From: Pyrodictium abyssi
Lineage (GTDB): Archaea > Thermoproteota > Thermoprotei_A > Sulfolobales > Pyrodictiaceae
NCBI RefSeq assembly: GCF_036323395.1
Contig: NZ_AP028907.1
Coordinates: 1,170,001 to 1,202,000, forward strand
Direction: 5' to 3'
Length of the DNA stretch: 32,000 nt
The notes under the pieces were generated by a model. That model was not told where the DNA came from. It saw nothing but the letters and a program-made list of their open reading frames with translations, and ran no database searches. Position numbers and translations under genes: made by a program. Shown here in pieces: positions 2,319 to 32,000 of the stretch; position 1 is the stretch's first letter, and every line of letters begins with the position of its first letter.

Positions 2319-3116
2319 ATGGGGGAGGAGAAGGGCGGGGAGAGGAGGCTCATACCCGTAGCAGTGGTAGACGCTGTCACCGGCGAGCCCCTAATGCTAG
2401 CCTACGCCGACCAGGAGGCCCTAGACCTGACCAGGGAGACGGGCCTAGCCCACTTCTACTCCCGTAGCCGCGGCAGCCTCTGGCTCAAGGGCGGCTCGAG
2501 CGGCGGGCTCCTAGACGTGGTCCGGGTCCTAGGCGACTGCGACGGCGACGCAGCAGCCTACGTGGCCCGGCCCAGGCGCCACGTATGCCACCTGGGCCGG
2601 AGGAGCTGCTTCCACAACACGCTGCTCGACCGCCGCCGCGAGCTGCTCGAACAGCTGCTGGAGGAGACCCGGCCCCACACCAGGATCGATGGGGCCCGGG
2701 TGCTGCACCCCCTCGCCACCTGGGCGCCGCCCCCGCCGCCGCTCCTCACAGCGCTAGCAGCGGAGCTGCTGGCCGAGAGGATACGCTCCCGGGCAGGCCC
2801 AGGGCTCACAGCCGTGCTAGCGCCCGAGGGCCCTGGAGGCCTGCTCGCGCTCCTAGCAGCCCAGAAGCTGGCCGTACCCCTCCACCTGGCCCGCGGCGGC
2901 CGCGCCCCAGAGAGCATCGGCGAGACAGACCGCGTCGCGGTCTACGCGCCCAGCCCAGCCGAGACCCAGGAGCTCGCAGAAGAGGCGCAGAAACGAGGCG
3001 CCCATGTGGCGGCTGTGGCGGCCCTAGCAGCCCCCGCCGGCGGGGACACCGGGGGCGTAGACGTGCTCATACGGGCCGAGCATGGCCACCCACCACGCCT
3101 AAGGCTAGCACTCTAG
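2319..3116 (+). CDS. hisI: Phosphoribosyl-AMP cyclohydrolase (HisI) fused to a C-terminal degenerate type-I phosphoribosyltransferase-like domain
   Basis: The N-terminal ~105 aa (LIPVAVVD..GEPLMLAYADQEAL..THFYSRSRGSLWLKGGSSG..DCDGDA..C.LGRRSCFH) is HisI. The C-terminal ~150 aa (LTAVLAPEGPGGLLALLAAQKLAVPLHLARGG...RVAVYAPSPAETQELAEEAQKRGAHVAAVAALA) aligns by eye with the PRTase domain of the 21799-22527 protein. It lacks the acidic VDD..TG PRPP loop. Confidence 0.85.
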   Translation: MGEEKGGERRLIPVAVVDAVTGEPLMLAYADQEALDLTRETGLAHFYSRSRGSLWLKGGSSGGLLDVVRVLGDCDGDAAAYVARPRRHVCHLGRRSCFHNTLLDRRRELLEQLLEETRPHTRIDGARVLHPLATWAPPPPPLLTALAAELLAERIRSRAGPGLTAVLAPEGPGGLLALLAAQKLAVPLHLARGGRAPESIGETDRVAVYAPSPAETQELAEEAQKRGAHVAAVAALAAPAGGDTGGVDVLIRAEHGHPPRLRLAL

Positions 3117-3148
3117 CCAGGAAGCCACCATCTACACCGTAAACGCCG

Positions 3149-5319
3149 CTAGGACCACTTCCCGCAGGCCTTGGACACGGCCTCCAGGAGCCTCCTAAAC
3201 TCCTCCGCTTTCTCGAGGCCGCCGGCCCCGTCCGCCTCTAGGAGCAGCTGGGGCAGGAAACACTTTTCGCAGTCCCTCCTACGCCGCCTCCAGTACTCGT
3301 TCACAGCCCGTACCGGCCCCCGGCTGCACGGCTTGTCCCGGCAGCCCCGCAGCCCGGGCGCAGTACACGCCAGCGCCTCCATGCAGGGGCCGACTGCTAT
3401 CACCTCGGCGCCTCCGCCTAGCCTGTGCTTCTCGCGGACACTCCTCTCCCGCTCACCAGCCCGGCCCAGCTCGGCGTCGACGAGGATAACCACGCGCCGG
3501 CCGCTCCCAAGATGGGCCCTAACTATCCTAGTCATCTTCGCGCTACAGACCGGGAGGTGCAGCACCATGAAGCAGCGGAGGCCCCGGCGGCCAAGGAGCC
3601 AGCTCTAGAGCCCTCTTCGCGTAACGGTCCTCAACGACCACTACCACCCTACTACCCGCCAACGCCTCCAGCGCCCCACGCCTACCTGTCTCCAGGAGGC
3701 CGTAGAGGAGCGCCTCACTAGGCGTTACACCGAGCTCCCTCAGCTTCTCCGCGAGCCTCTCAGGGTCGCGGACCCTCCTAACCTTGGTCTCACCCGCCTC
3801 TATCTCGACCAGGGCAACCTCGTCCAGGCTCTTAGCAGCGTCAACCACCACCGGGGAGTGGGTAGCAACGATAGCCGTCGGCACGCTACGCCTAAGCTCC
3901 TCCAGCAGCAGCTCCTGGGCAGAGACGCGTGGAGACTATTCTCGAACTCGTCGACCGCGACAAGGCTGGCCCCGCTCAGCACAGCAGCCATAACAGCCAT
4001 AGTCTTCCAGGCCCCCTCGGGCACAGAAGGCTGAGCAACCTCCACATTTTCGACCACGAGCCGGAACGCCACACTGCCGTCCGGCGTAGGCTCAAAGAAC
4101 CCCGAGACACTACCAGCACCCAGAACGTCGGCAAGCACGGCAGCCACGTCCTCCGGGAGACGGCCACGCCCAAGCCGGAACAGCGCCGAGAGAAGGTTAG
4201 ACCCGTCCTCCCTGAGCCCCCGGGCTCCAGCACCTGCGGCGAACGCAGAGAACGATAATCAAGCAAACGAAGAACAACAATACCATCAATGAACAACCCA
4301 ACCAGATACGCCGCCGCAATCAATACTGCAACGATATTCGTAACTATGCTGGACCCTAGGCTCAGAGCCAGCCTCCTGGCAACACCGCCCACGATACCCG
4401 GAAACTTGCCTACCTTCTTCTTTCTTCCTGCTAGTCTGCTCACGAGGCAGCTGACAAGCTGCTCAGCAGGTTTAGTAAAGTCCAGCTTACTAAATACTAC
4501 AGCAGCTATACTCTCCCATAGAAGGTGTGAAACAATAGCATCTGCTTCTTCGAAGATATCGACCAGGTAGTTTGCTTTACCAACACGATCAAGATAGAGA
4601 TCAAGGACTCCTCTGGCCGGTATAACTTCCGCTGCAGGAGTGTCTCCGGTTAGTGACTTCTCCTCGAGTAGTGCAATGATCTGGTCTCTAAGTTGCTGTA
4701 GTAGATTATCTCTCTAAGTACTGCATACAAGAACATCTTCGGTTATTTTTGTAGCTATAGGCAAGATATCCATAGCGATACTTCCATGATACACCGGAGG
4801 TCTATGTGGCAATGATTTTGCTATTTTGAGGACCACGCCTTTCGGACTGAAAGCCTAGACAGCCTGTTCTACCAACACATACCTCGTCCTCGACTATCTG
4901 GAATTGTCCGCCGGTGCCAGATACTACAAGACTATATCTTGACTTTTCCCATACTGTCACGTATTGCTTCCTTAACGCTCTCTGCTCCCAGCTTTTCCTC
5001 TAAGAGTTTTGCTAGTTCCTCTTTGCTGCATGTGCTGCAGTCTAGGGTTATGGATATGGTTATGGGCTTGGTTTCGTCGTGCATCCATACGGCGTGGCGG
5101 TAGCCCCACCAGCGTAGGAACGGGTTGGCTACGCGGCCTCGGAGGTAGTCGAGGGTGTCCCGGAGGAGTAGCAGCGACTCTATGATGGCTGTCTTGCCTG
5201 AGCCGTTGGGGCCTACGAGTATCGTGAGCCTGGTTGGGAGCTCGAGCCTAGTATCCCCGTAGGGACTTGAAGCCGGAGACGCGTAGCTCTGCGAGCCTGC
5301 AGCAGGTGGGCCGGGGGTT
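3149..5319 (-). pseudogene. Decayed OLD-like ABC-type ATPase fused or adjacent to a TOPRIM-like domain, with multiple frameshifts and an in-frame stop
   Basis: Minus-strand fragments lie in different frames:
- ~5265-5235: VSGFKSLRG.
- 5232-4930: DTRLELPTRLTILVGPNGSGKTAIIESL (Walker A).
- Helical middle, with an in-frame TAG at 4714-4716.
- ~4250-3930: SLVAVDEFENSLHA (Walker B).
- 3884-3543: AIVATHSP (H-loop), continuing to SRVVVVVEDRY (TOPRIM Glu strand).
- 3568-3149: RRVVILVDAELG ... EVIAVGPCMEAL.
The total ATPase part (~545 aa) is the same size as the intact paralog at 17582-19183. No start codon remains. Confidence 0.7.
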
Positions 5320-5494
5320 CTACACCCTTGTTCCTCCCGTGTAGCGTAGTATAGCGGCCCGGGACGGGGGCATAAGCGTCTATGGCCCCCGGGGCGCCCG
5401 GTGATGCCGGGCCCATTGCGTACCCTGTCGTCCTGCTTGGCCGTGCATCTTTTCTCGGTGATACCGGGGGTGTTGTAGGCGGGCTCTCCCGGCC

Positions 5495-6199
5495 TTGTCT
5501 AAGCGTTTCGAGCGCATGTATGCCCGGCTGGCCGTGCTCGCGGAGAGGATGGGCGTCGGGGATCTCCTCGGCCCGGTCGTGGAGAGGCTCGCGGCGCTCT
5601 ACAGCCGGGGCGTGCTGGGCGCGAGCCACGTGGTGCTCGAGCTCGTCGCCGCTGGGTGGCTCGCCCGCGAGGGCTACACGGTGTCGGTGGAGGAGCCTGT
5701 GGACGGGCTCATAGCCGACGTGGTGGCCAGGGCGGGGCGCGAGATGCTCCTGGTGGAGGTCGAGACGGGCTACACTCCGCCCCGGTGGAGCCACGCGCCC
5801 CTAGCCTACCACGCGGCCCGGCTAGCGGCCAAGACCGCCCGGTACAGCAGGCTCGGCGACAGATTCGCCCTCGCCTACCCCCTGGGCTACGCCGCGCCCC
5901 TGCACCCCGCGCTGCTCGAGCCCCCGTGGCGCCGGAGCCAGGGGATGCTAGCGGAGCTGAAGAGCCTGGTTGACCGGTTCTACAGGAGGCCACCCATACC
6001 CCTAGAAGCCTTCATGGATGCACGTCTCGACGCTGTGCTCCTCCTCGACCCAGACAACGCCGCGGCCTACTGGGCCCCGCCGAGCCACGCCCCCGGCCTA
6101 CAGGTGCTGGCGCTCCAGGCGGCGCTCTCCACCCTGACCAGCCCCGGCGGCGAGCCAGGCACCGCCAGCCCGGTGGCGGCTACCTCTGCGCCGTCCTAG
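5495..6199 (+). CDS. Hypothetical protein with a possible PD-(D/E)xK nuclease-like core
   Basis: 234-aa ORF with host-like codon usage (TTG at 5495 or ATG at 5516). GLIADVVARAGREMLLVEVETGY resembles a D...(E)xE/K restriction-endonuclease-fold core. The opposite-strand ORF 5213-5794 is R/P-rich shadow. Confidence 0.55.
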   Translation: MSKRFERMYARLAVLAERMGVGDLLGPVVERLAALYSRGVLGASHVVLELVAAGWLAREGYTVSVEEPVDGLIADVVARAGREMLLVEVETGYTPPRWSHAPLAYHAARLAAKTARYSRLGDRFALAYPLGYAAPLHPALLEPPWRRSQGMLAELKSLVDRFYRRPPIPLEAFMDARLDAVLLLDPDNAAAYWAPPSHAPGLQVLALQAALSTLTSPGGEPGTASPVAATSAPS

Positions 6200-7577
6200 C
6201 GGCTGCTGGCTCTATAACCCGGTTGTGGTGGAGCCACTCGAGGTCTACGGCTATATGGTGCTCCTCTAGTATTGGCTCGTCCAGCCCCCGGGCTACCAGG
6301 ACGTAGTAGTTCCTGGGCGAGGCTAGCCCGGTCTCGCCCGCCTTCTCCTCGAGCTTCTCTAGCGCTCGGCGCGCGTCGGCCCTGCTCAGCCGGGCCCACT
6401 TGGCCTCGATGAAGGCCGTTGCTCTGCCGGGGCTCCTCAGCACCAGGTCTATCTCCATGCCCCGGCGCCACCAGGGCCCCGCCTGCCGCGGCTCCAGGGG
6501 CAGAATGCCCCGCTCCACCATGCGGGCGGCCAGCTGCGGCACGATTGTCTCCTCGAACGCCCGCCCCATGTAGCTGTCTAGCTCCCCGAGTATGGCGCGG
6601 CGCGCCTTCTCCACGGCGCCAGACTCTATCAGGCTCCTCAACGGGAGTATGAAGCTGAACCAGAACCTGAAGAAGTTGTCTCTGAACCGTAGCTGGACGG
6701 GCCTCCTCCTGCCCAGGGGCCGCACCCTCCCCACCAGGTCCAGCTCCTCGAGGACCTCGATGTAGCGGCCGATACTCCTCGGGTCCACTCCCGCTGCCTG
6801 GGCGGCCTCGCTCGGCTCCACCCTGCCCTCGGCGACGGCCCGCAGCAGTGCAAGGTATGTGCGGGGCTCGCGCAGCTCCTGCCGTAGCAGCAGCACCGGC
6901 TCGTCGAGGAGCGGGCTCCCGGGACGAGTAGCCTCCTCTACGAGCTTCTCAGCGGAGGCGCCGGGCCCCAGGAGCGCTAGGTAGGCCGGTGTGCCCCCGG
7001 CTACCCCGTAGAGACGGGCAGCCTCCACAGCGGTAAGCCCTGGGTTGAAGCCCCAAGCCTCCCAGAACGCCATTGGGCGTAGCCTTAGCTGCCCAGTGCG
7101 GCGGCCGTAGAGCGGCGCCCTGTAGCCGAGCAGCCGCTTCTCGAAGAAGGAGACAGAGGAGCCACAGAGCACCAGCATCATCCCGGAGCCCTTGAGGGCC
7201 GTATCTATGCTCCTCATGAGCCGGCTCGGCAGCGAGGGATCAGCCTCCACAAGGTACTGGAACTCGTCCAGCACCACCACCAGCTTGCCGCCGCCCCGGT
7301 GGAGCCGGGCGAGGGCCTCCAAGACCTCGACAACGTCCCCGGCGACAGGGAGCCCCAAGGCCTCCTTCACCGCCAGGGAGAACTCCCGGGCAAGGCTCTC
7401 GTAGGGCAGCTCAGCAGCCACGTAGTAGACGCATGGCCTGCCGCGGCAGAACCAGCGCAGCAGAAACGTCTTCCCGACACGCCTCCGCCCATACACCACT
7501 AGCAGCCGGAAGCCCGGCTCACGGTACTCCCTTTCGAGGAGCCCCAGCTCCCTCTCCCGGTCAACCAGCACCTCCAC
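6180..7577 (-). CDS. Archaeal ATPase (Arch_ATPase/AAA) with a DUF234-type C-terminal domain
   Basis: 465 aa. DRERELGLLEREY....LLVVYGRRRVGKTFLLRWF (Walker A), LVVVLDEFQYL (Walker B) and a C-terminal GMEIDLVL...AFIEAKW (DUF234-like nuclease-fold tail). Confidence 0.9.
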   Translation of the reverse strand: MEVLVDRERELGLLEREYREPGFRLLVVYGRRRVGKTFLLRWFCRGRPCVYYVAAELPYESLAREFSLAVKEALGLPVAGDVVEVLEALARLHRGGGKLVVVLDEFQYLVEADPSLPSRLMRSIDTALKGSGMMLVLCGSSVSFFEKRLLGYRAPLYGRRTGQLRLRPMAFWEAWGFNPGLTAVEAARLYGVAGGTPAYLALLGPGASAEKLVEEATRPGSPLLDEPVLLLRQELREPRTYLALLRAVAEGRVEPSEAAQAAGVDPRSIGRYIEVLEELDLVGRVRPLGRRRPVQLRFRDNFFRFWFSFILPLRSLIESGAVEKARRAILGELDSYMGRAFEETIVPQLAARMVERGILPLEPRQAGPWWRRGMEIDLVLRSPGRATAFIEAKWARLSRADARRALEKLEEKAGETGLASPRNYYVLVARGLDEPILEEHHIAVDLEWLHHNRVIEPAAARTAQR

Positions 7578-9034: not shown

Positions 9035-9589
9035 GTGGCTACCAGCGTGCAGCAGCTCCCAGCGCAGCCGCTCTCCGAGGACGAGAAGGAGAGCCTACTC
9101 TACATGGTGGAGGAGAAGCTAGCCCGTGACGCATACAACAGGCTAGCCGAGATGTACCCCGACGTACCAGTGTTCGCCAACATAGCGAGGAGCGAGCAGC
9201 AGCACGTAGACTCCGTGATGCAGCTAATAGAGAAGTACGGGCTCGACGTAGAGCTAGGGCCGCCCGGTGTGTTCCACAACCAGGAGCTACAGAGCCTCTA
9301 CAACGAGCTAGTAGACCGCGGCTCCAAGAGCCTAGAAGAAGCACTGAAAGTGGGCGCACTGATAGAGGAGAAGGACATAGTAGACCTAGAGGAATGGCTC
9401 GCTAAGACCGACAACGAGGACATCAAGCTAGTCTACGAGAACCTAATGCACGGCAGCTTCAACCACCTATGCGCCTTCACAAGGACCATGAAAAGCATGC
9501 TAGGCGTAGACTACAAGCCAGTACTCCTCGACGAAGAGACATACAACAGCATCATATCCAGCTGCCAGATGGGCGGCCCCAAGCGCTAA
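9035..9589 (+). CDS. DUF2202 ferritin-like domain protein (possibly 5'-truncated by a frameshift; see findings)
   Basis: LSEDEKESLLYMVEEKLARDAYNRLAEMYPDVPVFANIARSEQQHVDSVMQLIEKYGL is the typical DUF2202 signature. GTG start at 9035. Confidence 0.8.
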   Translation: MATSVQQLPAQPLSEDEKESLLYMVEEKLARDAYNRLAEMYPDVPVFANIARSEQQHVDSVMQLIEKYGLDVELGPPGVFHNQELQSLYNELVDRGSKSLEEALKVGALIEEKDIVDLEEWLAKTDNEDIKLVYENLMHGSFNHLCAFTRTMKSMLGVDYKPVLLDEETYNSIISSCQMGGPKR

Positions 9590-10121
9590 AGGAATACAGA
9601 GAGAACACAGCCCCAGGGCACAACCCCCTACACAGCACCAACACCCCGACACACGCCACACGCATGAACGTATTTTCTCGCCCCAGGCAGGGACAAGCCC
9701 TCTGCCAGACACCACAGCGAGCGTTAGTGTTACCGTATTCAGTTAGCCTCGGAATACAGCATCTATGGGCAATGTCAGGTCAACGGATTGACCCAAGGTC
9801 TTCGCTGTCACTAAGAATTGATGACAGAAAGGTTAAGTACATGCAGTCAGGCAAGTGATAATCAATAGAGCTGACGGGAGAGGCCTATCCTGTTACAGTC
9901 CTGCATCATGTTAAATACTTTGGCGGGCTGAGAATGCTTTAGGATTTAGTAAAGCATGAATTGAAGCCACCGTCAAATGGACAAAGTGAGATTCAGAGAG
10001 CAAGCATGAAGCTCGTTGCGGGAATTACGGAATCAACAAATTTAGTTGTTTATGAAGTAAGGCGTGTTGAAACGCAGTGTAATTGATTGCTACTATGTGG
10101 CTGAGAATGATTAGACAGAGT

Positions 10122-11129
10122 CTAATTCTCTGCTATGTTATTTGGATGCTGTTTAAGCGATTCTACTAGCTCTTTCACCTTTTGCCAGCATAGGTATTCT
10201 CTCGACAGTCTAGCCAGTTCATTATCTATGTTGGCTACTTCTTTCCAGTCCACACAGCGCAAATATTGGTCATTAGCTAAATCTATGGAAAAGACCCTTA
10301 GGACAAGATATGTGATTATTCCACTGACATCGATAAACTTGTTGAGGTATTTCAGCAGGTATTCGGGAACGGGTTCAAGTTCTATCCAATCCCTATAGGT
10401 AGCAATTCTAGCACCCGTCTCCAAGAATCTGGGATGAACACGGTGTGCATGTCCAGAGAGTTCGCTGTAATAGTCATGTATTATTTTAAAAAGATGGCCA
10501 TCTATAATGCCCCAGTTCTTTAACTGTTCTAGAAGCTTGGCGAATGCAGCACTTGGATTAAAATCTGTCAGCTTACTTTCCATTAAGTCAAACAAGTATG
10601 CTGATGGTACAATTCTACTATCTCCTATTTCTTTCTCGATAAGCTCTAGCAGCTCTTTAAAGCTCTTAGCAGCTTTAAAGCCATTTATCTTCTTCAGATT
10701 CACTGCATTCTTACGGTATTGCGGTATTGCCAGTAGGTCAAAGATTATGCCACGGATAACACTCTCTAGCGCATTACGCAGTTCGCTGAAAGCTACACTG
10801 TAATAGCCTGTAAGAGCTGATAGAAGAGAATACCTCATAAGCATTACAGCATCATAATGATAGACTATTAGTGCTGTATGTAGTTGCCAAAACTCGTTGA
10901 AGATCTCCTCGTTGCATACATTTTTTGAAGGCATAAGACCAACAATTAATTCTCCAGAGCTGTTCATTGCACTCATTAAGTTATCAATTATCTCAGCCAC
11001 GCTCAACGTGCTATAAACCGATGGTAAAGCCTCAATATTATCGCTCACTTTGCTAATGTGAGTGCTCATATTTTTTGAATATGTATAGTACAAAATCGGT
11101 AATTCGTGCAAGCTTACGTAAAGTTTCAT
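10122..11129 (-). CDS. Hypothetical helical protein, a distant member of the same family as 12304-13038 and 13255-14037 (HEPN/DUF4145-like, tentative)
   Basis: 335-aa AT-rich ORF. It shares two blocks with the paralogs: LTGYYSVAFSELRNALESVIRGIIFDL and GIIDGHLFKIIHDYYSELSGHAHRVHP. Compare ALRQILEAITIAVYMD and YGLLSSYIHPF in the 13255 protein. Confidence 0.6.
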   Translation of the reverse strand: MKLYVSLHELPILYYTYSKNMSTHISKVSDNIEALPSVYSTLSVAEIIDNLMSAMNSSGELIVGLMPSKNVCNEEIFNEFWQLHTALIVYHYDAVMLMRYSLLSALTGYYSVAFSELRNALESVIRGIIFDLLAIPQYRKNAVNLKKINGFKAAKSFKELLELIEKEIGDSRIVPSAYLFDLMESKLTDFNPSAAFAKLLEQLKNWGIIDGHLFKIIHDYYSELSGHAHRVHPRFLETGARIATYRDWIELEPVPEYLLKYLNKFIDVSGIITYLVLRVFSIDLANDQYLRCVDWKEVANIDNELARLSREYLCWQKVKELVESLKQHPNNIAEN

Positions 11130-11467
11130 CCTCGTTCTTATTATTGTTACTCCGTAGCTCCACAGCTATCCCTAAGCTCTTTATAGACAACCAAGAAGCT
11201 ATATTTAAATTTTATAGTATAATTTCCTCGATTACTCTGTAAAAGGGCTCATACAAGGACAAGGGATGACCGTATAATGGTTCCGTATAATGATAGGAAA
11301 CCACGAGACACTTAGTCTGACGCTTTAGAGTCCATAATCTGCAGAATCTAGCTCTATGCACGATACGTCGGTAACCGGGATGAGCTTGAATGAAATAGCC
11401 CTGTAAGAATCCAAGAAGCTAGATATCAGCTTACAAGCACTTCATGTTATAATGATTGGCGTGATTC

Positions 11468-11983
11468 TTATAATGAGCTTTTTATCCTTAACGCTGGCCC
11501 TAATTGATAGCACATTATAATTCTTCTCGAGTTGTCTAGCATGATTTTTAGGGTGATAATGTTGAGGGCTTTCCTGGAGGCAAGTAATGTCCCAGCCAGC
11601 AGGCTGGCTAGGAGGAGTTTAGCAGCCGTTTGGATGTAGCTGGCCTTTTCTACTAGCTGACTATAGGCTTCTGGTCGAAGACGCCGTGCTACATTGTCTA
11701 CGAGATGTTGTGCTACATGCTCGTCGAGGACCAGAGCGCTAGAATAGAGTGCCCTCATAGCATAGCTTTTGCCGGTATTCGGTGGGCCTAGGGGCAGGGT
11801 CACGTCTCCTAGCGATAGCTCTGCGCTTCGGACGGGGCCGAAGTTCTCTAGGATAAGCTTCACTGGAGGTTCCCCTGCATATAGCCGCTGCACTCCTAGC
11901 CCTACCGGGCAGGGGCGACGCCCTATCAGCCTACCGTCACGCTCACAGCATGCCATTCTCCTGGGCGGTACATGAGACAGCAT
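11468..11983 (-). pseudogene. N-terminal relic of a P-loop (SMC/ABC-like AAA) ATPase
   Basis: VKLILENFGPVRSAELSLGDVTLPLGPPNTGKSYAMRAL is the N-terminal strand plus Walker A of an AAA_15/21/23-type ATPase. The ORF stops after ~170 aa with no Walker B or signature motif downstream. Its 5' part is distinctly GC-richer than the surrounding island. Confidence 0.5.
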
Positions 11984-12303
11984 AAGCAGAAACCTTCTAA
12001 GGGTACATGAGGAGCGACTATCCTGTAGCTTGGGTTATTGCCCTTCTCAGGGCCGTCTCAGAGGACTGGTACCTAACTAAACATGGCTCTAATCTATGCC
12101 TAGCTCCTTGCTTGGCCCCGACAACAGTCAGCCGGCCAAGTGCGAACCGTAGCCTGATTCCCGGATGATGGGCGGGCTTAATTTGCGGGACTTTTTTATA
12201 GCAGATCCTGGCAACTGGTAATGAAACGGATGAGATGCATGCATGAGATAATGTTGGTAAGGCTGAGCACTTAAGGGATGTATCCGATGAGCTTGATTCA
12301 CTT

Positions 12304-13038
12304 GTGGAAATGGAGTATGGGCTTGTATGGGCTGCATGCAAGTATGGTCTAGAGAATTTCAAGTACGCGGCGAGGAATGCTCGTGGGTTTATTCAGTCTT
12401 GTAGCGAGCTATCGGATACAGTTGAAGAGGTCTTCATGAAGTATTTTGTTGATATCGAGGATAACCTAGTAGGGGAGACTGTAACGCCTGCGGCACTACT
12501 CTACGTTATCGTGCCTCTAGGGTTTTTGTCCTATGTTTGCACGGTGGCTCTTCATGGCGCGTTGCCTTATGCAGCGGCTGGCCTAAGGCTTATTGTTGAA
12601 GCATTAACACTATCAGTATATGTTGATACTAAGTTTCCGGATAAAAGCTATGAGGAAAAACTAGACCTAATGTCAGAGAAGTATAATACATTTAGTGCCG
12701 TTGCTGAGGAGCTAAGAAGGTATGCAAAGATAGATAATAGACTTATAGATGACGTTATTACTGTATGGCGTGAAACATCAGCCTATCTCCACTTTGTTAA
12801 TCGTGCCCGAAGGGCTGGTGCGAAAGGCATACTCCGCCTAGTCGAGAAATATGTAGAGGAGCACGGTGCTCCTCCAAGCGGCTTCACTATACCGTTGCCA
12901 ACAGAGTTCCTCTTCGAGCATGATGCCAAGGAGCTAAGAAGGCTGGAAGAACTAATTAGATTAGTTACCAAGATTGTGCCTGGACTCCTTGAAGCCTGGG
13001 CAAGAACGCTCAGAGAGCACAGAGCTGGAGCTAACTAG
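12304..13038 (+). CDS. Hypothetical helical protein, paralog of 13255-14037 (HEPN/DUF4145-like, tentative)
   Basis: 244 aa. It is clearly alignable to the next gene: FMKYFVDIED / FLKYFVYIEE; LSYVCTVALHGALPYAAAGLRLIVEALTLSVYVDT / PGYVCTSILQAAIPLAYFALRQILEAITIAVYMDT; WRETSAYLHFV / YGLLSSYIHPF; EEHGAPPSGFT / DEHGIPPTFAT. Confidence 0.7.
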   Translation: MEMEYGLVWAACKYGLENFKYAARNARGFIQSCSELSDTVEEVFMKYFVDIEDNLVGETVTPAALLYVIVPLGFLSYVCTVALHGALPYAAAGLRLIVEALTLSVYVDTKFPDKSYEEKLDLMSEKYNTFSAVAEELRRYAKIDNRLIDDVITVWRETSAYLHFVNRARRAGAKGILRLVEKYVEEHGAPPSGFTIPLPTEFLFEHDAKELRRLEELIRLVTKIVPGLLEAWARTLREHRAGAN

Positions 13039-13284
13039 TTCTCCTATTCTTGGTTATGGCCGGAGACCGATACTGGATAACATCGGTGGTTGCAGTTACA
13101 AGTGAGTTTGTTGAAGAGTCACTGAGAAGAACTTGATTGATGCAAGCGTGTTATTCACTGTGTAGCTAGTCTCTAATAGCTGATAGGCTGATAGTATGTA
13201 TTGTGAAAAATATAAATAGATAAGAATGCTAGCTAGATACTGTCAAGCCGTGAAGTGTATACATGGCTGGAGGGATCTGATGGG

Positions 13285-14037
13285 ATGAAGTTAAAGGAGG
13301 AGCGTGGGGAGTTTGAGCAATTGAAGCGCTTTTACGTTGAGAATAGCTGCGAGGTAGCGCATAGTAACTTTAACTACATCCTTAAGATTGATAAAGGCTT
13401 GATCATAGCCTGTGACGAGTTCTATGAAATATGCATAGAGTTGTTTCTCAAGTACTTTGTATACATAGAGGAAAGTATAAAGGGAATCGACCCGGAGACA
13501 TACTTTAAGAGATATCTCCTGCCCTCCGTGCTTTTCTACATAGTAGCGCCGTTTCCTGGCTATGTGTGTACAAGCATACTCCAGGCCGCAATACCCCTTG
13601 CATACTTTGCGCTTAGGCAGATACTTGAGGCAATTACAATAGCCGTGTATATGGACACATGTCCGAGGTACAAGAACCTAGACTATGAAAGAAAGGCAAG
13701 GGAGGCCAGAAGGCTCACATTCTCTGATACACTTGGCTACTTTGAGCGGATAGACAGAGGACTCGCAGAGAACCTCAGAAGACTCTACGGTCTCCTCTCG
13801 AGCTACATACATCCCTTTGCCAGGAAGGGCCTGGGAGGTCTTGTGAGCCTTGCCGACAGATCGCTAGACGAGCATGGTATTCCTCCAACCTTCGCAACTG
13901 CATTTGCATTATCAAAATACACGGGAGGTAAGGCCGACGAGACTGAGCTTGCCAGGTTAAAGAAAACGATATATGAGACAGCTAGGCTAGTCATAGAACT
14001 AATAAACGTATGGCTCATGTACATTGCCAGAGGGTAA
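13285..14037 (+). CDS. Hypothetical helical protein, paralog of 12304-13038 (HEPN/DUF4145-like, tentative)
   Basis: The ORF is open from the GTG at 13255. The ATG at 13285 is preceded by GGAGGG. An AAAATATAAATAG TATA-like box lies at ~13209-13221. Paralogy evidence is given for the previous feature. Confidence 0.7.
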   Translation: MKLKEERGEFEQLKRFYVENSCEVAHSNFNYILKIDKGLIIACDEFYEICIELFLKYFVYIEESIKGIDPETYFKRYLLPSVLFYIVAPFPGYVCTSILQAAIPLAYFALRQILEAITIAVYMDTCPRYKNLDYERKAREARRLTFSDTLGYFERIDRGLAENLRRLYGLLSSYIHPFARKGLGGLVSLADRSLDEHGIPPTFATAFALSKYTGGKADETELARLKKTIYETARLVIELINVWLMYIARG

Positions 14038-14062
14038 CTGCAGAAAACGGGACTGGCATAGT

Positions 14063-15034
14063 TTATATCAGAAAGGTGTGCAGTTCCACGGATAGGTTTC
14101 TTGCTGCTAGGTCTACAGTATCTATTCGTCCCTCGGCTATCAGTTCTAGTAGCTTTTCAGCTGTTAGCTTAGCTTTATCTTCTCTTGTTATCCTCCTAGC
14201 AGCTTCTAGGATTGGTTTTAGGTTATCCTTTGAGAGCGTATGTATTGCTTCGCGTGCCTCTTCTTCAAGATTTTCTCGCAGAGCTCTTGCTAGTAGCTCT
14301 GTCGGTGTTTTGCCGTCTGTGCGTACTATTATTACTGCTATGGGTTTGTCCCGATGATGTCTTGCCAGTAATTTTGCGTAGCGTGCTGCCTGTAGTAATG
14401 GATTATGGCTCGCCGTTGCTATAGTTCCTTCCTCGGGAGTCTTTATTTCAAAAACTACTGCCATGCCAGTACAGTCTACATAAAGGTCTAGCCTTGCTCC
14501 AGTCGCAAAGTAGTGCTCCAAGTTTACAGTTTCACAGTCGGGAGGAAGTAAACTGCAAAGAACATGTTTTAACGCCTCCTTGAATGTCTCTCCGTCAAGC
14601 CTTAGAGTGAAGAGTGTGTCCAAGATTATTATGAGCTTTTCTGCGGTATTGTCTGAGGGTATTAAACTGAGTAGCTGCCCTACATGTGCCGCTACGTCTG
14701 TAGGACTTATTCCCGTCGAATACTGCATAGTATGATGTTGACTTCTGCATCTTACTGTAAGTGCATCCCAAGGTATGCTATCGTAGTGTTGCAGCCTCAT
14801 CACTTTGAGTCCTCTAACACTATGTCTAACAATGTAGGCTTTCCATTTCTCCTCAAGCTTTTCAGCAGCTTCAGGACTTATTGTCTCTACTTTCCTTACT
14901 ATGTTTCTATAGGTCTCTAGGGGCACGCAGACCAAGTCACCTACGTTCTCGCCTAACGATGATAGGATTATCTCAGACAGTGCGAGGTAGAGGGCTGTTT
15001 TGTCAACCGTTTTCCGCCTCGTTTTCCTCCTCAA
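14063..15034 (-). CDS. PD-(D/E)xK nuclease-fold protein with a basic N-terminus and a helical C-terminal tail
   Basis: 323 aa. The TTG start lies 4 nt after the stop of the upstream gene and is preceded by GGAGGT. The core is E173-H..ARLD183LYVD186...VVFE196IK198, followed by LLQAARYAKLL and PIAVIIVRTDG. This order is typical of PDDEXK/Rpn-like nucleases. The N-terminus is MRRKTRRKT. Confidence 0.7.
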   Translation of the reverse strand: MRRKTRRKTVDKTALYLALSEIILSSLGENVGDLVCVPLETYRNIVRKVETISPEAAEKLEEKWKAYIVRHSVRGLKVMRLQHYDSIPWDALTVRCRSQHHTMQYSTGISPTDVAAHVGQLLSLIPSDNTAEKLIIILDTLFTLRLDGETFKEALKHVLCSLLPPDCETVNLEHYFATGARLDLYVDCTGMAVVFEIKTPEEGTIATASHNPLLQAARYAKLLARHHRDKPIAVIIVRTDGKTPTELLARALRENLEEEAREAIHTLSKDNLKPILEAARRITREDKAKLTAEKLLELIAEGRIDTVDLAARNLSVELHTFLI

Positions 15035-15038
15035 GCGC

Positions 15039-16367
15039 TCATACCTCCGAGGCTATTTCGTTGGCGATTTTTGTCTTGGTAAGCTGTATAGAGTCCCTTA
15101 GTGGTTCGAGGAGAAGGCTTCTGATTTCCTCTCTAATCCGGCTTTCAGACATACTTGAGTAGGTGAACATGGAGAGATTAAGCATGTTTATGCCAAGATA
15201 GTTGTAAGTTGAGTTATTTATAGCTAAGCTTCTAGTCTCGGCCGGCACAGCGCCTACTATTAGATCAAGATCGAGTCCATTGCGTGGCAATCTGAGGGAG
15301 AAGAATGTTATTTGGGGCGTTCCCTTGGCCTCAAGATCGTTAAAGAATTCGTCAGGATCCTTGTAGTTTAGTAGTTGCGCTGCTACTTCTTCTGCTGACA
15401 CCTTTCTATCAGGACCTATTATGCCCCCATACGCTATTATACGATACTTTATCCCACTCACGCGAAGTACAACAGCTTTGCCGCCACGCCTTTTTACTTG
15501 ACCGTATAGGGCTTTCGCCAGCCTATTGGGGCCAATAGCGTTTATAACATCATAACCTGTTAACGTATCTACATCCCTGTTACTAGCATAACGTATTATC
15601 GCTTGAAACGCTGCTGTGAACGTTCTAACTTGTTTGGTTATAATACTTGGCCCATACAAGCGGACCTCTATTCCGCTTATATCGCTATTTGGACTCACTA
15701 AAGCTATTCCAGCAGGCTGGTAGCTTGTGAAACGTATGCTCGGGGAGCTAAGATTTAGAGTCCCTCCTATCGACACTCCAAGGTTTACCACACGTAGAGA
15801 TCCTGAAGCAAGCAGAAGTGGTATCCAATCTCGTCCTCCCACTCTTATATAGGGGCTATCTCGTCTAGTTAAGGGTAGAATCCATAAATTAGTGCCCCTA
15901 TAGCTATACATGAAGCCTCTCTCATAAACTACTAATGCAGCCCTTCTATCTACTTGTCTATTTGTAACGAGCTCTCCTCTATTAACCTCAAATTCCAGCC
16001 TTGTGCTATCAACGGGTTTAAGCGTTGCCTCGTTGCTCGGGAGTATACCTGCAACCATATCATCTATAAGCTCGCTAGGTCTAGCGTTTTGAGGAAATAA
16101 GAATACTATACGCCCTCTTGAATAAAGGTTAAGTTCCTGATTATTCTTAATATCGTCAACTATACTTTGTATGAGGTCCTCTTGGTGTATCTTTCCAAGA
16201 CACTCATACCTACCAAGAGGCCTCTTTTTAATTGATGTATAGCAGTCAGCTAGCTGTTGCAAAGTCTTGGTGGGAGTGGCTTGTTGCAGAAACACATAGT
16301 AGGGTATAGCGTCTGCAGAGAACTTCCTTATTGTGCTGGACATGCCTACCCCTATAGTGGCTAACAC
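15039..16367 (-). CDS. Unknown beta-rich protein; candidate divergent, catalytically inactive short Argonaute (MID-PIWI-like). This is a hypothesis from motif order only.
   Basis: 442-aa ORF from the GTG at 16367; the ATG at 16343 gives 434 aa. An ATATATAAT TATA-like box lies at 16378-16386. Ordered motifs (aa numbering from 16367):
- YYVFLQQ (23-29).
- RIVFLFPQ (86-93).
- ILPSN (108-112).
- RGTNLWIL (157-164; compare the PIWI motif K-L-G-G-x-x-W-x-L).
- NLGVSIGGT (195-203).
- AVVLRVSG (298-305; compare the hRDG strand, which is HVSG in Archaeoglobus Piwi).
There is no P-loop and no DEDX set. Confidence 0.45.
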   Translation of the reverse strand: MLATIGVGMSSTIRKFSADAIPYYVFLQQATPTKTLQQLADCYTSIKKRPLGRYECLGKIHQEDLIQSIVDDIKNNQELNLYSRGRIVFLFPQNARPSELIDDMVAGILPSNEATLKPVDSTRLEFEVNRGELVTNRQVDRRAALVVYERGFMYSYRGTNLWILPLTRRDSPYIRVGGRDWIPLLLASGSLRVVNLGVSIGGTLNLSSPSIRFTSYQPAGIALVSPNSDISGIEVRLYGPSIITKQVRTFTAAFQAIIRYASNRDVDTLTGYDVINAIGPNRLAKALYGQVKRRGGKAVVLRVSGIKYRIIAYGGIIGPDRKVSAEEVAAQLLNYKDPDEFFNDLEAKGTPQITFFSLRLPRNGLDLDLIVGAVPAETRSLAINNSTYNYLGINMLNLSMFTYSSMSESRIREEIRSLLLEPLRDSIQLTKTKIANEIASEV

Positions 16368-16448
16368 TATAGGTGAGATATATAATGCTGCAGTACTATT
16401 GAGCCAGCTAGGCCAACTAAGGCGTCTCTAAGTTCCATAGCACCATAA

Positions 16449-16679
16449 TCATCGCATGCATCTACTACCATCCCCTAGAAGCCTCATGGTGGTTTGATCG
16501 AGGCTTACCAGCTCGAGTCTGATTCTCTTCCTGTCTAGCTCGTATTCTCTTGTTGCCTCGGCTTCGTCGGGGAGGGGTTCATCTACGCCTAGAAGCCTTT
16601 CCTCTAGCAGGGCCTCGATCCGCTTCAGCGTAGCCTGGAGACCGCGTATCTCCTCTAGTAGCTGTTTCTCTACAGACAA
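16449..16679 (-). CDS. Small coiled-coil protein (antitoxin-like archaeal family), uncertain
   Basis: 76 aa with a TTG start. LLEEIRGLQATLKRIEALLEERLLGVDEPLPDEAEATREYELDRKR..ELVSL resembles small archaeal helical proteins that end in a ...vsLeel motif. It is GC-richer than its neighbours. Confidence 0.4.
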   Translation of the reverse strand: MSVEKQLLEEIRGLQATLKRIEALLEERLLGVDEPLPDEAEATREYELDRKRIRLELVSLDQTTMRLLGDGSRCMR

Positions 16680-16789
16680 GCTACTAGGGCACCCCGTTGC
16701 TACGGTATGAGCAGGCTCTGGGGGCGGTTAAGCTGCTCCTTCTATCTTCACGTCCTGGCCTCTAGCCTTAGGGAAATACATGGAAACAA

Positions 16790-17545
16790 TTAGAGCAGCC
16801 TAACTATAAACGAGTCCAGGTCTGTGTCCTCCAAGCCGTCTTGTATGCCTGCTATCAGCTCCCGCAGCATAGCCCTCCATGCCGGGTCAGCATTGTCTAT
16901 AAGATGCTTCACCTTCTCCACCACAACTGTCACTCCAGCCTCCTTCACATTTCTTGGCAACTCTCCTTCAACTACCTCATGGCAGTGCTTTCTCACGTCT
17001 TTATCACAGTATTCTACACTAGTAATGGGACTTCTCGGCACTACTAGTGCTATCCAGCATTCCGCACTACATTTCCACGACGCTATGCATATCTTAGGTC
17101 TGTCAGGCCGCCTAATACATAGTGACGCAAAGTACTTACCTCCGTGCTGTATTGGTTGAACTTCTTTATCCTTCTTGTTTCTCACAATGATCTCTTGTAT
17201 GATTTTCCAAAGTCTTTGATAATACTCGTTTGCCCTATCAGTAGGCCTATCTGAATCGCTATCCACTATTACCGCCAGACACACTTCTGCATTAGGGACA
17301 GACCGAATGAATGCTTCAGTGGCTTTAATTATTTCTTTCGTGGCATCCCTTACATTCTTTATCCCTCCGGCTGGATATATAGCAATGCATCCTGCATCGA
17401 GGAAGCATTCCCACATGTATTCTTTTATTTCTTCTATGTTACTGGAATAGTAGAGGTCATAGTTATCCGAGACCGCAGCACCTAAGAGATAGACGTCATA
17501 CAATCCCTCTGTTACTATGATCGCGTATTTACAGCCACTTAGCAA
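16790..17545 (-). CDS. TOPRIM-like (DUF4435/OLD-type) putative nuclease, partner of the upstream ABC ATPase
   Basis: 251 aa. The TTG start is preceded by AGGAGGTG, 36 nt after the ATPase stop. The pattern AIIVTEGLYDVYLL (TOPRIM Glu) ... IYPAGGIKNV ... LAVIVDSDSD (DxDxD) matches the DUF4435/OLD TOPRIM layout. Confidence 0.65.
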   Translation of the reverse strand: MLSGCKYAIIVTEGLYDVYLLGAAVSDNYDLYYSSNIEEIKEYMWECFLDAGCIAIYPAGGIKNVRDATKEIIKATEAFIRSVPNAEVCLAVIVDSDSDRPTDRANEYYQRLWKIIQEIIVRNKKDKEVQPIQHGGKYFASLCIRRPDRPKICIASWKCSAECWIALVVPRSPITSVEYCDKDVRKHCHEVVEGELPRNVKEAGVTVVVEKVKHLIDNADPAWRAMLRELIAGIQDGLEDTDLDSFIVRLL

Positions 17546-17581
17546 CGCTATGCACCTCCTGCTATGCTATTGACTAGGGAG

Positions 17582-19183
17582 CTATATGCCGCGCAACTCT
17601 ATACCTATTTCCTTTGCCTCTAAGATCTCTCTGCCCTTAAATACTGAGTATACCTCTCCGTTCGACATCAAGACAGTCTTAACCTTGTCGAGAACACCAT
17701 GCCTCATAGCTCTTTTGGCGATAAAGCGTATCAGCTCCATGCTATGAGTGCTGAGCAACACAAGAGCACTAGGATTCTCTTTAGTAGCTCTCGCTATGCT
17801 ATCTGCAAGTACCATTAAGTAGCCTGGGTGGAGTCCAGTCTCGGGCTCTTCAAGGATAAGTACTGTCTGGGGCTGCCTCCTAGCTAGAACTAGACCTGCT
17901 AGCAAGGCTAATAGCAGCAGGGTACCATCGCCGAGTAACGCTGCAGGTATTCTCATACCGTCCTTTCTCAGAAGGACTTCATTCTCTTTAATGATAGGAT
18001 CCTCTAGATTGAGACTTCTGATGCTTCTAATAACGTTACCATAGTCTCTAAGGAGTCCAAGATCATGAACTTTGTCTACTATTTTCTCTAAGGTATTTGC
18101 GCCAAAGATTTCATGGCGGATAACAGTACTTCTTCGAAATACTGTGTAAACATTCCATTCCGTCTTTTCATTGGCCTTTCCATCGTTGAGGTTTACTCTG
18201 TACTGTGCTGTCCATAAGTTATCTATAGTCCTTCTCAGTTTCTTCCATATACACCGCCTAATCATTTTTCCTAGTTCTTTACCTAGCTGGAGCTTAGCGT
18301 AGACTGAATATAAGTCTTTTAATTCAGCTCTCTCTAAGATTATCCCTGTCATATTTATTATGTTACGTACGAAGACTGCTTCAAGATTACTAAGTTCTTC
18401 GTAGTATTGTTTCTCCTTGCTTACACCCATTCTAAAGCGTGGCAAGTATAAGTAGGATGATCCATTCAGCTTTATAACTATGCTATCATCTATGATTGGC
18501 CTAATTATCCTGTTGACATGCTCCCTTAGGGTTAATGCTGCAGATTTTAGGGCAGGCTCACTTTTGTATATACTTCTCGCTAAACTTTCTGGAAGCAATA
18601 TAGGTTGTACTATTTTTTCTATCGATAACCTTTCTTCACAAGTTGATTCTGCAAGATGAGCTATAATGTACCCTATAGTGAACATTATCGTTGTTAACGC
18701 TTCACCCTCTCTAGTGTAGCTAGCAAAGGCTTTTCTGAGACATCTGTATGCTTCGCCTTCACTTGTCAGCTCATCGTAGAGGCTTTCTCTGATTTTTTGA
18801 AGCATCATACATAGGAATTGATTATTTATTGTGCTATTTGGCTTAGCTATCCTTACTATTCGGGCGCCTTGGTCATCCATCTTGAGATTTAGATTTATGG
18901 TTGCCTCTTCTCTGCATGTCAAGTTCAATAGCCTACTTGGGTGCCCAGCGAGCTTGTCGTCTATTATCATGCGGGCTATGTCGTTGCCGAGCCAGTCTTG
19001 TAGGCTAGGTGCTGAGAATGCGAGGGCTAATGCCTCGAGGACTGAGGATTTGCCGGCGTTATTCCTGCCGGTGAGTATAGTTATCGGAGCCAGCTCTAGC
19101 TTAACCTCTTTTACTCCTCTGAAGCACTTGATCTTGGCTACGCCAATAGGGCTATCCTGCTTGGTCTCTTTTGCTTGCTCCAT
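17582..19183 (-). CDS. ABC-type AAA ATPase of the AAA_15/AAA_21 (OLD N-terminal / AriA / RloA-like) family
   Basis: 533 aa. Walker A TGRNNAGKSSVLEAL, a long helical insert, a signature-like LLGDGT, Walker B VLILEEPETGLHP and H-loop LLSTHS. Confidence 0.9.
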   Translation of the reverse strand: MEQAKETKQDSPIGVAKIKCFRGVKEVKLELAPITILTGRNNAGKSSVLEALALAFSAPSLQDWLGNDIARMIIDDKLAGHPSRLLNLTCREEATINLNLKMDDQGARIVRIAKPNSTINNQFLCMMLQKIRESLYDELTSEGEAYRCLRKAFASYTREGEALTTIMFTIGYIIAHLAESTCEERLSIEKIVQPILLPESLARSIYKSEPALKSAALTLREHVNRIIRPIIDDSIVIKLNGSSYLYLPRFRMGVSKEKQYYEELSNLEAVFVRNIINMTGIILERAELKDLYSVYAKLQLGKELGKMIRRCIWKKLRRTIDNLWTAQYRVNLNDGKANEKTEWNVYTVFRRSTVIRHEIFGANTLEKIVDKVHDLGLLRDYGNVIRSIRSLNLEDPIIKENEVLLRKDGMRIPAALLGDGTLLLLALLAGLVLARRQPQTVLILEEPETGLHPGYLMVLADSIARATKENPSALVLLSTHSMELIRFIAKRAMRHGVLDKVKTVLMSNGEVYSVFKGREILEAKEIGIELRGI

Positions 19184-19369
19184 AGCCCTCCCACTCCACC
19201 TACAGGCTACAATGCATTATACCGTTTCAAAACCATGAGTGTCGATGCCGGGTTCGATACCGTGAGCTTTCGGCTGTGGAGGGTTCATAGCTGTACTGGT
19301 CTTTGCGGCTCTTAAGTACCCTGCCCGGGAATGTGTGGCGTTGCTGGTGCTCGGGGTCTTTTGCAGTCT

Positions 19370-20116
19370 TTATAGTATGCCTAGTGGGTTGAGCCGCCAG
19401 GTGTAGAGGGCCATGCCTGCTACTGCCTCGTCGTAGCCCATGGCGGCGAGGAGCTCTAGGTCCCGGGGGCCCGCTATGCCCCCGCTGTATGCTAGCCGGG
19501 GTGCGCCGGCCTCCCGGGCCTGCCGGGCTAGCCTGGCTGCGCGGTGGAGGTCTACGCCGCGCTGCTCGCCCTCGTGGAAGACCTGGGTGTAGAATAGCCC
19601 CCAGATGCCGCGGGTGCTTGCTGCCTGCTTCACGGCCTCGGCTAGGGTCATGGGCTCCCTGCTGCGCCACGCGCTTGTGGCGGGTAGCGCGTCCCAGTGC
19701 TCCTCGACGGCTGGGACCAGTACGCCGGGGCCTAGCGCGTCCACGGCCTCCTGGAGGAACTCGGGGCGGCGGAGCCACGCGCTCGCGACCACCAGGCGGT
19801 CGGCGCCCGCGCTGTGGGCCTCTTCTAGGGCGTCTATGCTCCGGAGCCCGCCGCCTAGCTGTATCGTGGCCCCTGTCTCCCTCTTGGCCCACTCCACGAG
19901 CTCTAGGACGCACCTGCTAGGCCTGCCCCTGGCCGCGCCGTCCAGGTCGACTATGTGGAGGACCGTGGCGCCGAGGCTGTGCCAGAGCAGGACGAGGCGC
20001 CGTGGGTCTCCGAGGCGTAGCCCGGTGCCGGGCACGCCCCGGACCAGCTTGACGGCCTCGCAGCCGGCCACGTCTATGCTGGGTACGAGCCGGGGCCTGG
20101 AGAGGAGGCTTGGCAT
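19370..20116 (-). CDS. hisA: ProFAR isomerase (HisA)
   Basis: The ATG at 20116 lies 2 nt after the hisG stop; the ORF is open to 20233, but that extension is R/P-rich. Motifs VPSIDVAGCEAVKLVRG, LHIVDLDGA, IQLGGGLRS and AYSGGIAG. Confidence 0.9.
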   Translation of the reverse strand: MPSLLSRPRLVPSIDVAGCEAVKLVRGVPGTGLRLGDPRRLVLLWHSLGATVLHIVDLDGAARGRPSRCVLELVEWAKRETGATIQLGGGLRSIDALEEAHSAGADRLVVASAWLRRPEFLQEAVDALGPGVLVPAVEEHWDALPATSAWRSREPMTLAEAVKQAASTRGIWGLFYTQVFHEGEQRGVDLHRAARLARQAREAGAPRLAYSGGIAGPRDLELLAAMGYDEAVAGMALYTWRLNPLGIL

Positions 20117-20118
20117 GG

Positions 20119-31950: not shown

Positions 31951-32000
31951 CCCATATTACCTCCTAGCTTAGTTCATCACATAGGTAGAGAAGCGTTGCA

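Follow-up and report, generated by a model that had tools for sequence, protein, structure and literature searches.

A disabled two-gene ATPase and TOPRIM-like cassette in the histidine-biosynthesis neighbourhood of Pyrodictium abyssi

We analysed a stretch of 32,000 nucleotides (nt) of the Pyrodictium abyssi genome (contig NZ_AP028907.1, hereafter the window) and found that 3149-5373 contains an almost full-length but disabled two-gene module, which encodes an ATP-binding cassette (ABC)-type ATPase and a small TOPRIM-like protein. Very probably, this locus is a pseudogenised cassette that was intact ancestrally, that has lost both of its genes recently and whose role, by analogy with known systems, would have been defence-like. 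The ancestor that P. abyssi and P. delaneyi share would have carried two separate, tightly coupled genes, one for a 572-amino-acid (aa) ATPase and, 20 nt on, one for a 170-aa Cys-rich TOPRIM protein. On the branch to P. abyssi both were disabled, at a time that is recent compared with the species split, and the loss of a stop codon together with a deletion in the spacer produced an accidental open junction between the ATPase and its partner. Coordinates are positions in the window throughout, and the studied locus lies on the minus strand.

Results

An intact and syntenic orthologue in P. delaneyi

The identity of the locus was established by comparison with P. delaneyi. A protein search with the stitched translation of the locus fragments returned an intact 572-aa P. 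delaneyi protein (P0001, Pdsh_06475; 85% aa identity, E 1e-283), which chance could not produce. Twenty further ATPase relatives (21 in all, 427-581 aa long) each aligned to the ATPase part of the stitched query only, and the stretch downstream of the ATPase is the counterpart of a separate 170-aa P. delaneyi protein (P0022, Pyrde_1376). In a DNA alignment, the pair shared 85.7% nt identity with the P. delaneyi locus L001, where L001:10001-11719 served as the reference for the ATPase. The window and the P. delaneyi loci L001 and L002 also have a common gene order: hisB, an ATPase_2/DUF234 ATPase, a 235-aa gene, the 572-aa ATPase, the 170-aa gene, hisI, hisH and hisD. In P. delaneyi, the cassette thus stands in a histidine-biosynthesis neighbourhood, between hisI and the unknown 235-aa gene. 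Because the locus is syntenic in both species, the cassette predates the split of P. abyssi and P. delaneyi.

An earlier, sequence-only reading of this DNA had described the locus as dead, and the orthologous-locus comparison agrees: P. delaneyi carries both genes intact and in synteny, and relative to that orthologue the P. abyssi copy is broken by two nonsense codons and six frameshifts and has lost a stop.

The two P. delaneyi loci come from one assembly (GCA_002194565.1, contigs NCQP01000003.1 and NCQP01000005.1) and were 100% identical over the 2252 nt compared, which reflects either assembly redundancy or a large duplication.

Lesions in both genes

The lesions were catalogued from the DNA alignment to L001, a codon-wise comparison, coordinate checks and tblastn across frames. 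The ATPase pseudogene (3681-5373, minus strand; orthologue Pdsh_06475, a 572-aa SMC/Rad50-like protein of the AAA_15/AAA_21 type) has kept its ATG start at 5371-5373, which aligns to the ATG of P. delaneyi. The earlier reading had found no start codon and had ended the locus at 5319; the orthologous ATG lies 54 nt past that end, and the true span is 3149-5373 instead of 3149-5319. From this start onwards, a first nonsense codon (CAG to TAG, orthologue codon 17) at 5320-5322 is followed by three frameshifts, each a +1 insertion: a G at ~5258 (approximate within a G run), an A at 4937 and a G at 4855. Further along come the in-frame loss of 30 nt that P. delaneyi has (4735-4736), a second nonsense codon at 4714-4716 (CAG to TAG, orthologue codon 228), which is the in-frame TAG already noted from the letters and is real, a 4-nt deletion (GCAG) at 4221-4222 that makes the fourth frameshift, and a +2 insertion (TC) at 3924-3925 that makes the fifth. 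The stop itself is lost, TAG in P. delaneyi being AGG at 3681-3683, and the former intergenic spacer (3663-3680) carries a 2-nt deletion (~3674) which brings the ATPase frame into phase with the partner.

The partner pseudogene (3149-3662, minus strand; orthologue Pyrde_1376, a 170-aa RloB/DUF4276/Mad4-like TOPRIM protein) has kept its TTG start (3662-3660). Its sole frameshift is a +1 insertion of G at ~3600, which cuts off the strand that carries the catalytic Glu (VVVVEDRY) from the remainder of the protein, and it also has two in-frame 3-nt deletions relative to P. delaneyi. A residual open reading frame (ORF) of 139 aa from an ATG (3149-3568, minus strand) lacks strand 1 and the catalytic Glu. 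Its last 128 aa are identical to a database protein (P0023, 'hypothetical protein [Pyrodictium abyssi]'), which also assigns the window to this species, and it is changed at five conserved positions (D92G, L103P, H129R, Y133C and R136C). A further remnant ORF lies at 3543-3884. The P. abyssi copy can make neither full-length protein. Programmed frameshifting or stop-codon readthrough was considered and rejected: the lesions are too many and too varied, and none is conserved in relatives.

Frameshift-aware searches with the P. delaneyi proteins recovered both genes nearly end to end. By tblastn, the ATPase was found as six high-scoring segment pairs in three frames (aa 2-571) and the partner as two in two frames (aa 3-168). 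The sequence-only reading had spread the motifs over at least four frames; the switching of frames holds and the count does not, the locus using three minus-strand frames with six switches. Three-frame translation of 3100-5450, with coordinates checked, placed every motif that it had listed on the minus strand and in the order given. The Walker A motif GPNGSGKT (5213-5190) lies on the same fragment as Pfam matches to AAA_15, AAA_21 and SMC_N. The Walker B and D-loop motif VAVDEFENSLH (3961-3929) is in a frame other than that of Walker A, and is followed by the H-loop ATHSP (3866-3852); D484, F486 and E487 of the former and T513, H514 and S515 of the latter are invariant in the alignment A4. 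The ATHSP frame continues without a stop into the partner strand SRVVVVVEDRY (3653-3621), and yet another frame holds both VVILVDAELG (3493-3464) and EVIAVGPCMEAL (3406-3371).

An SMC/Rad50-like ATPase

Pfam searches matched the N-terminal fragment in the window to AAA_15 (32.8 bits, cut-off 32.1), AAA_21 (30.2 bits, cut-off 27) and AAA_23, also above cut-off, and gave a weak AAA_21 match for the fragment with Walker B and the H-loop. The intact P. delaneyi orthologue matched AAA_21 (62 bits), AAA_15 (48.5 bits) and SMC_N. With its motifs in order and its Pfam matches above the gathering score, the ATPase falls in the AAA_15/AAA_21 clade of SMC/Rad50-head-like ABC proteins. An AlphaFold 2 (AF2) model (predicted local distance difference test score, pLDDT, 85) had fold matches to the heads of SMC, cohesin, condensin and Rad50, to PtuA of Septu/retron systems and to the Thermus scotoductus OLD protein. 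The best PADLOC matches of the intact ATPase were HEC-01A (85.5 bits), mad3 (60 bits), AriA (60 bits) and GajA (~51 bits), from models that have no curated cut-off, and its scores for the NCBIfam equivalogs MAD3 (46.9 bits vs a cut-off of 420) and PtuA were far below the cut-offs.

A divergent solo relative of the ATPase was found at L065:6001-7659 (P0016; 34% identity). It has a degenerate Walker B motif (VAVDGFEDGL) and a long charged C-terminal tail, and the gene after it is a Peptidase_M55 gene instead of a partner.

A small TOPRIM-like partner

The partner was characterised from the intact P. delaneyi protein and from its family. Its AF2 model (pLDDT 92) consists of four strand-helix units and, after them, a bundle of helices. 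In a viral structure library, its best match was an RloB-like protein (template-modelling (TM) score 0.63 over 170 columns, E 7e-4), with scattered matches to the TOPRIM domains of DnaG and topoisomerases; the top fold match in the PDB was 6njv, the C-terminal TOPRIM region of Xanthomonas OLD, and was weak (E 3.7e-3, TM 0.35). The P. delaneyi partner had no Pfam or NCBIfam match even at E<=10, and among PDB sequences the family profile found no significant match. Across 47 family members, matches were found to Pfam DUF4276 (12 members), Pfam RloB (12) and the PADLOC models mad4 (27, best E 1.5e-8), HEC-01B (8), AbiLii (4) and ATPase-Toprim_I-B (3). DUF4276 and RloB belong to the Toprim superfamily, and Mad4 is a DUF4276 homologue (PMC12065111).

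The residues point the same way. A putative catalytic Glu stands in VVEDRY, at the end of strand 1 (E7-11) of the model, and D63-A-E65 stands at the end of strand 3 (E57-63), the second acidic residue being E in Pyrodictium (DxE) and E or D elsewhere. Across the 47 members, D63 is nearly invariant and E96, after strand 4, is invariant. These conserved residues are compatible with TOPRIM chemistry, and on its acidic motifs and its family and fold similarity the partner is placed in the RloB/DUF4276/Mad4 branch of the TOPRIM superfamily. Four Cys residues (C94, C100, C108 and C113) are common to the partners of close relatives, and we would guess that this segment binds zinc. The ATPase and TOPRIM content proposed by the earlier reading is in this way borne out, by Pfam and fold matches for the ATPase and by family and fold matches for the TOPRIM protein.

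Damage confined to the locus and recent in origin

We considered whether the genes might be functional, the frameshifts and stops having entered the deposited P. abyssi genome through faulty sequencing or assembly. In favour of this view, single-base insertions make up four of the six frameshifts, some of them lengthening a G, and substitution rates and conserved-site changes (below) show almost no relaxed constraint. Against it, the other lesions, namely the two C to T changes that create TAG codons, the 4-nt deletion, the 2-nt insertion and the 30-nt deletion, are untypical of homopolymer errors; two substitutions in the partner, D92G and Y133C, fall where the family is conserved or invariant; and the only protein recovered for P. 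abyssi at this locus was the 128-aa remnant. The 2.2-kb pair has six frame-breaking insertions or deletions, and the six genes around it (hisD, hisH, hisI, the 235-aa gene, the DUF234 ATPase and hisB; ~6.4 kb, 84-91% nt identity to P. delaneyi) have none. Because these equally diverged neighbours have no frame-breaking difference, the damage is specific to the locus, which argues strongly against a general problem of sequencing quality. We regard the view that the genes are in fact functional as very improbable.

Relative to P. delaneyi, the ATPase had a ratio of nonsynonymous to synonymous substitution rates (dN/dS) of 0.17 and the partner one of 0.15, compared with 0.12-0.21 for the intact neighbours. 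Among the residues that outgroups conserve, the ATPase has two changes specific to the window (R443S and D451E) vs one in P. delaneyi, and the partner has the five already listed for its residual ORF vs two in P. delaneyi. Since dN/dS is neighbour-like and conserved-site changes are few, most of the divergence appears to have accrued under purifying selection, with inactivation recent relative to the species split. The sequence-only reading had seen an older acquisition undergoing decay: the presence of the cassette before the split of P. abyssi and P. delaneyi stands, and the age of the decay does not, dN/dS being that of the intact neighbours.

The base composition of the locus leads to a similar distinction. 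The middle of the locus is AT-richer, as had been noted, with a G+C content (GC) of 0.43-0.47 vs 0.62-0.70 at the ends; taking this as a sign of decay or of GC adaptation fails, because the middle of the intact P. delaneyi gene has a GC of 0.43-0.49. The AT-rich middle coincides with a helical insertion that separates the two ATPase lobes and is poorly conserved, and it is an intrinsic property of the gene and no mark of uneven amelioration. Overall, the two orthologues have a GC of 0.58 and 0.56 vs 0.63-0.72 for their neighbours, which fits an old foreign origin of the cassette, before the species split.

The open junction as a by-product of decay

The locus had also been described as a fused, OLD-like form in which ATPase and TOPRIM share one reading frame. 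In P. delaneyi, the ATPase ends in TAG and the partner starts 20 nt on in another frame. The ATPase and, directly behind it, the partner are also separate ORFs in Pyrofollis japonicus (L063), in a Pyrodictiaceae metagenome-assembled genome (MAG, L003), in Desulfurococcaceae MAGs (L004, L006 and L007) and in a further MAG (L064); a scan of genome contigs with a degenerate P-loop pattern gave at least six true relatives, with no other Pyrodictium genome such as P. occultum among the matches listed. No fused form was seen among the 21 ATPase relatives or among 61 partner-family representatives (72-236 aa), the total from an exhaustive profile search of 1.84 billion proteins.

Could the P. abyssi lineage nevertheless have carried a single-polypeptide gene of the OLD type that later decayed? 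The H-loop frame does enter the first strand of the partner without a stop, and ariA and ariB of PARIS are occasionally fused (PMC11464382). The Pyrodictiaceae MAG L003 (1450-1560) and the Desulfurococcaceae MAG L004 (7300-7420) have the two genes in the same frame with a single stop between them (in L004 a TGA, three codons and then TTG), leaving a true fusion one point mutation away; none was found in database searches. This evidence is outweighed: all intact loci examined have two ORFs, the relatives and representatives include no fused member, the partner has kept its own TTG start, and an in-phase junction requires two separate changes in a gene that already has seven lesions upstream. 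The window junction is open because the TAG stop has been lost (AGG, 3683-3681) and 2 nt have been deleted from the spacer. The open junction is secondary and the apparent OLD-like fused form a by-product of decay; an ancestral fusion is a remote prospect.

An unrelated intact pair on a low-GC island

The window also holds an intact pair at 16790-19183, an AAA_15 ATPase (17582-19183) and a 251-aa protein (16790-17545), of which the earlier reading had taken the decayed locus to be a second copy. Both genes lie in a low-GC island (~9600-19250, ~9.6 kb) of 38-47% GC vs ~70% in the flanks. The island separates a DUF2202 gene (9035-9589) from hisA (19370-20233), and because these two adjoin in P. 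delaneyi, the island is an insertion in P. abyssi. When the intact pair was searched against the decayed locus by tblastn, the 533-aa ATPase matched at the P-loop only (E 0.049) and the 251-aa partner did not match; a profile comparison (hhalign) of the partner family with the 251-aa protein gave a probability of 0.8%. The two pairs share a superfamily and no recent origin. That the locus is a decayed paralogue of this pair is thus scarcely credible, for although both ATPases match AAA_15/AAA_21 and the same PADLOC ATPase models and both partners have E...DxD/E-type motifs, the alignment is limited to the P-loop, the partners do not align, and the decayed pair has a syntenic P. delaneyi orthologue whereas the intact pair sits on an island that is absent from P. 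delaneyi.

Searches for the origin of the island were negative. Its other ORFs had no Pfam match, a search for direct repeats at its borders gave short, chance-level matches only, the window scans found no tRNA and no integrase in it, and tblastn of its 442-aa ORF against phage genomes gave no match. Since tRNA and Rfam scans of the whole window returned no match, no RNA gene or tRNA attachment site accounts for either the locus or the island.

Neighbouring features

Beside the cassette, the window carries on the plus strand a conserved 234-aa protein gene (5495-6199) without a Pfam family and with a weak NCBIfam match (E 0.007) to PRK14678, a 'hypothetical protein'. It converges on an ATPase_2/DUF234 'archaeal ATPase' gene (6180-7577, minus strand), the two having 20 nt of their 3' ends in common, and both genes also adjoin the cassette in P. 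delaneyi. The 5495-6199 gene, the DUF234 ATPase and the two cassette genes may constitute one non-his insert within the his neighbourhood. At the far end of the window (30500-32000), GC falls sharply a second time, to 35-41%; this stretch, which holds a 358-aa ORF (30874-31950, minus strand) with a weak CbiA/ParA-type match, may be the edge of another foreign element.

Discussion

Working of the intact cassette and points against the proposed reading

By analogy with modules such as HEC-01, MADS3-4, RloA/B and PARIS, an OLD-like working of the intact cassette is most likely. An oligomer of the ATPase would sense an invader-derived trigger and would control a metal-dependent TOPRIM nuclease that cuts nucleic acid, of which the P. 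abyssi copy is no longer capable.

Several observations weigh against a recently lost, defence-like ATPase and TOPRIM cassette. For the TOPRIM assignment, the partner had no PDB fold match at E<=0.001, the P. delaneyi protein had no Pfam match even at E<=10, TOPRIM_OLD (PF20469) included, and its PADLOC mad4 match was of 20 bits only (E 1.9e-4). For the recent loss, the disabling lesions are many relative to the missense drift, which is unusual for evolutionary decay, and local errors in the deposited assembly are formally possible. The lesion spectrum would reflect either a very recent decay with an indel-rich mutation spectrum or some lesions that are not genuine. For the role, defence is inferred only, the closest candidate class, HEC-01, gave no protection in the one published test (bioRxiv 10.1101/2024.01.29.577857), and the cassette sits among housekeeping genes in Pyrodictium.

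Turnover and significance

The context of the cassette varies. Its neighbours in Pyrofollis are a tyrosine integrase, a PIN gene and NurA, and at the remaining loci examined they are housekeeping genes. A second decayed copy of the same two-gene cassette, independent of that in P. abyssi, was seen in a Desulfurococcaceae MAG (L005:3449-4995, CAYXOO010000093.1), where the P-loop is destroyed, TAA and TAG codons stand in frame, the Walker B Glu codon has become TAG and a great many stops interrupt the partner region. These varied contexts and the decay of the Desulfurococcaceae copy fit the patchy, high-turnover behaviour of defence-type cassettes.

A broader reading would combine two claims, that the intact cassette is a distinct, undescribed archaeal branch of OLD-like two-gene systems and that its loss in P. 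abyssi is linked to the gain of the island; taken together, we consider this rather unlikely. Such a branch may have its members in Pyrodictiaceae and Desulfurococcaceae and, sporadically, in other archaea, and the partner of its ABC ATPase may be a mini RloB-like TOPRIM protein, Cys-rich and 170 aa long. Within Pyrodictium, the cassette may have been inherited vertically inside the his neighbourhood under purifying selection, and its loss may have followed from functional replacement by, or incompatibility with, the analogous and unrelated pair of AAA_15 ATPase and TOPRIM-like protein ~12 kb away. The independently decayed copy in the Desulfurococcaceae MAG would fit such rapid turnover.

For annotation, the 128-aa 'hypothetical protein' P0023 should be corrected to the tail of a broken TOPRIM gene, and the locus to two pseudogenes instead of one fused OLD-like gene. 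The pseudogene itself is an ordinary, fairly recent gene loss. It offers a clean, datable case of defence-type gene turnover in a hyperthermophilic archaeon, in which a vertically inherited cassette is dead and an unrelated analogue stands nearby on a new island. The intact proteins of P. delaneyi and Pyrofollis japonicus are small, thermostable members of the poorly characterised RloB/DUF4276/Mad4 branch with high-confidence models, and are fit for biochemistry.

Comparison with known ABC ATPase and TOPRIM systems

Two-gene systems of an ABC ATPase and a RloB/DUF4276-type TOPRIM protein are already known as a kind, and the family described here is a small, archaeal and unannotated one. MADS3-4 and AbiL are counted with OLD, Gabija, retron-linked systems and PARIS as ABC ATPase and TOPRIM systems (PMC11464382). 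HEC-01 (Hma-embedded candidate 01), a candidate system in PADLOC, consists of the ABC ATPase HEC-01A and a separate TOPRIM protein, HEC-01B, and showed no defence in one reported test (bioRxiv 10.1101/2024.01.29.577857). As in the intact cassette, its ABC ATPase gene is followed by a small stand-alone TOPRIM gene, and HEC-01A is the best PADLOC match of the intact ATPase (85.5 bits, PADLOC models having no curated cut-off). HEC-01B matches 8 of the 47 family members of the partner and not the P. delaneyi protein. In contrast to HEC-01, the cassette family is archaeal and is not embedded in Hma, its partner is shorter (170 aa) and Cys-rich, and the P. abyssi copy is dead.

The cassette resembles MADS, the methylation-associated defence system with its Mad3 ATPase and DUF4276 TOPRIM protein Mad4, in that the intact ATPase matches mad3 (60 bits) and the partner matches mad4 (E 1.9e-4), as do 27 of the 47 family members. 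It differs in that the ATPase reaches only 46.9 bits against the NCBIfam MAD3 equivalog (cut-off 420), and in that no methyltransferase or other mad gene is nearby, the neighbours being his genes, the DUF234 ATPase and the 235-aa gene. With RloA/RloB, the AAA_21 ATPase and RloB pair linked to type I restriction-modification, it has in common that the best fold match of the partner is RloB-like over its full length (TM 0.63) and that 12 of the 47 members match Pfam RloB; the cassette has no type I restriction-modification context, and the P. delaneyi partner has no Pfam RloB match. The partner motif DPCMEAL would also resemble the RloB motif NPCFE(l/h)W.

OLD proteins of class 1 (P2 Old, Thermus scotoductus OLD) and class 2 (GajA of Gabija) likewise combine an ABC ATPase with a TOPRIM nuclease, and Thermus scotoductus OLD (6p74) is among the fold matches of the ATPase, with 6njv the top match of the partner. 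These are single polypeptides, whereas the cassette family has two genes in all intact loci examined, and the partner has no Pfam TOPRIM_OLD match, members of its family matching DUF4276 and RloB instead. PARIS, finally, also has two genes, the ABC ATPase AriA followed by the DUF4435 TOPRIM effector AriB, and its AriA models match the intact ATPase at 60 bits. Unlike in PARIS, Pfam and PADLOC scans of the partner and its family gave no AriB or DUF4435 match, and the partner is half the size of AriB. PARIS offers a plausible mechanistic analogy, in which an ATPase scaffold releases or activates its nuclease on a trigger (PMC11464382).

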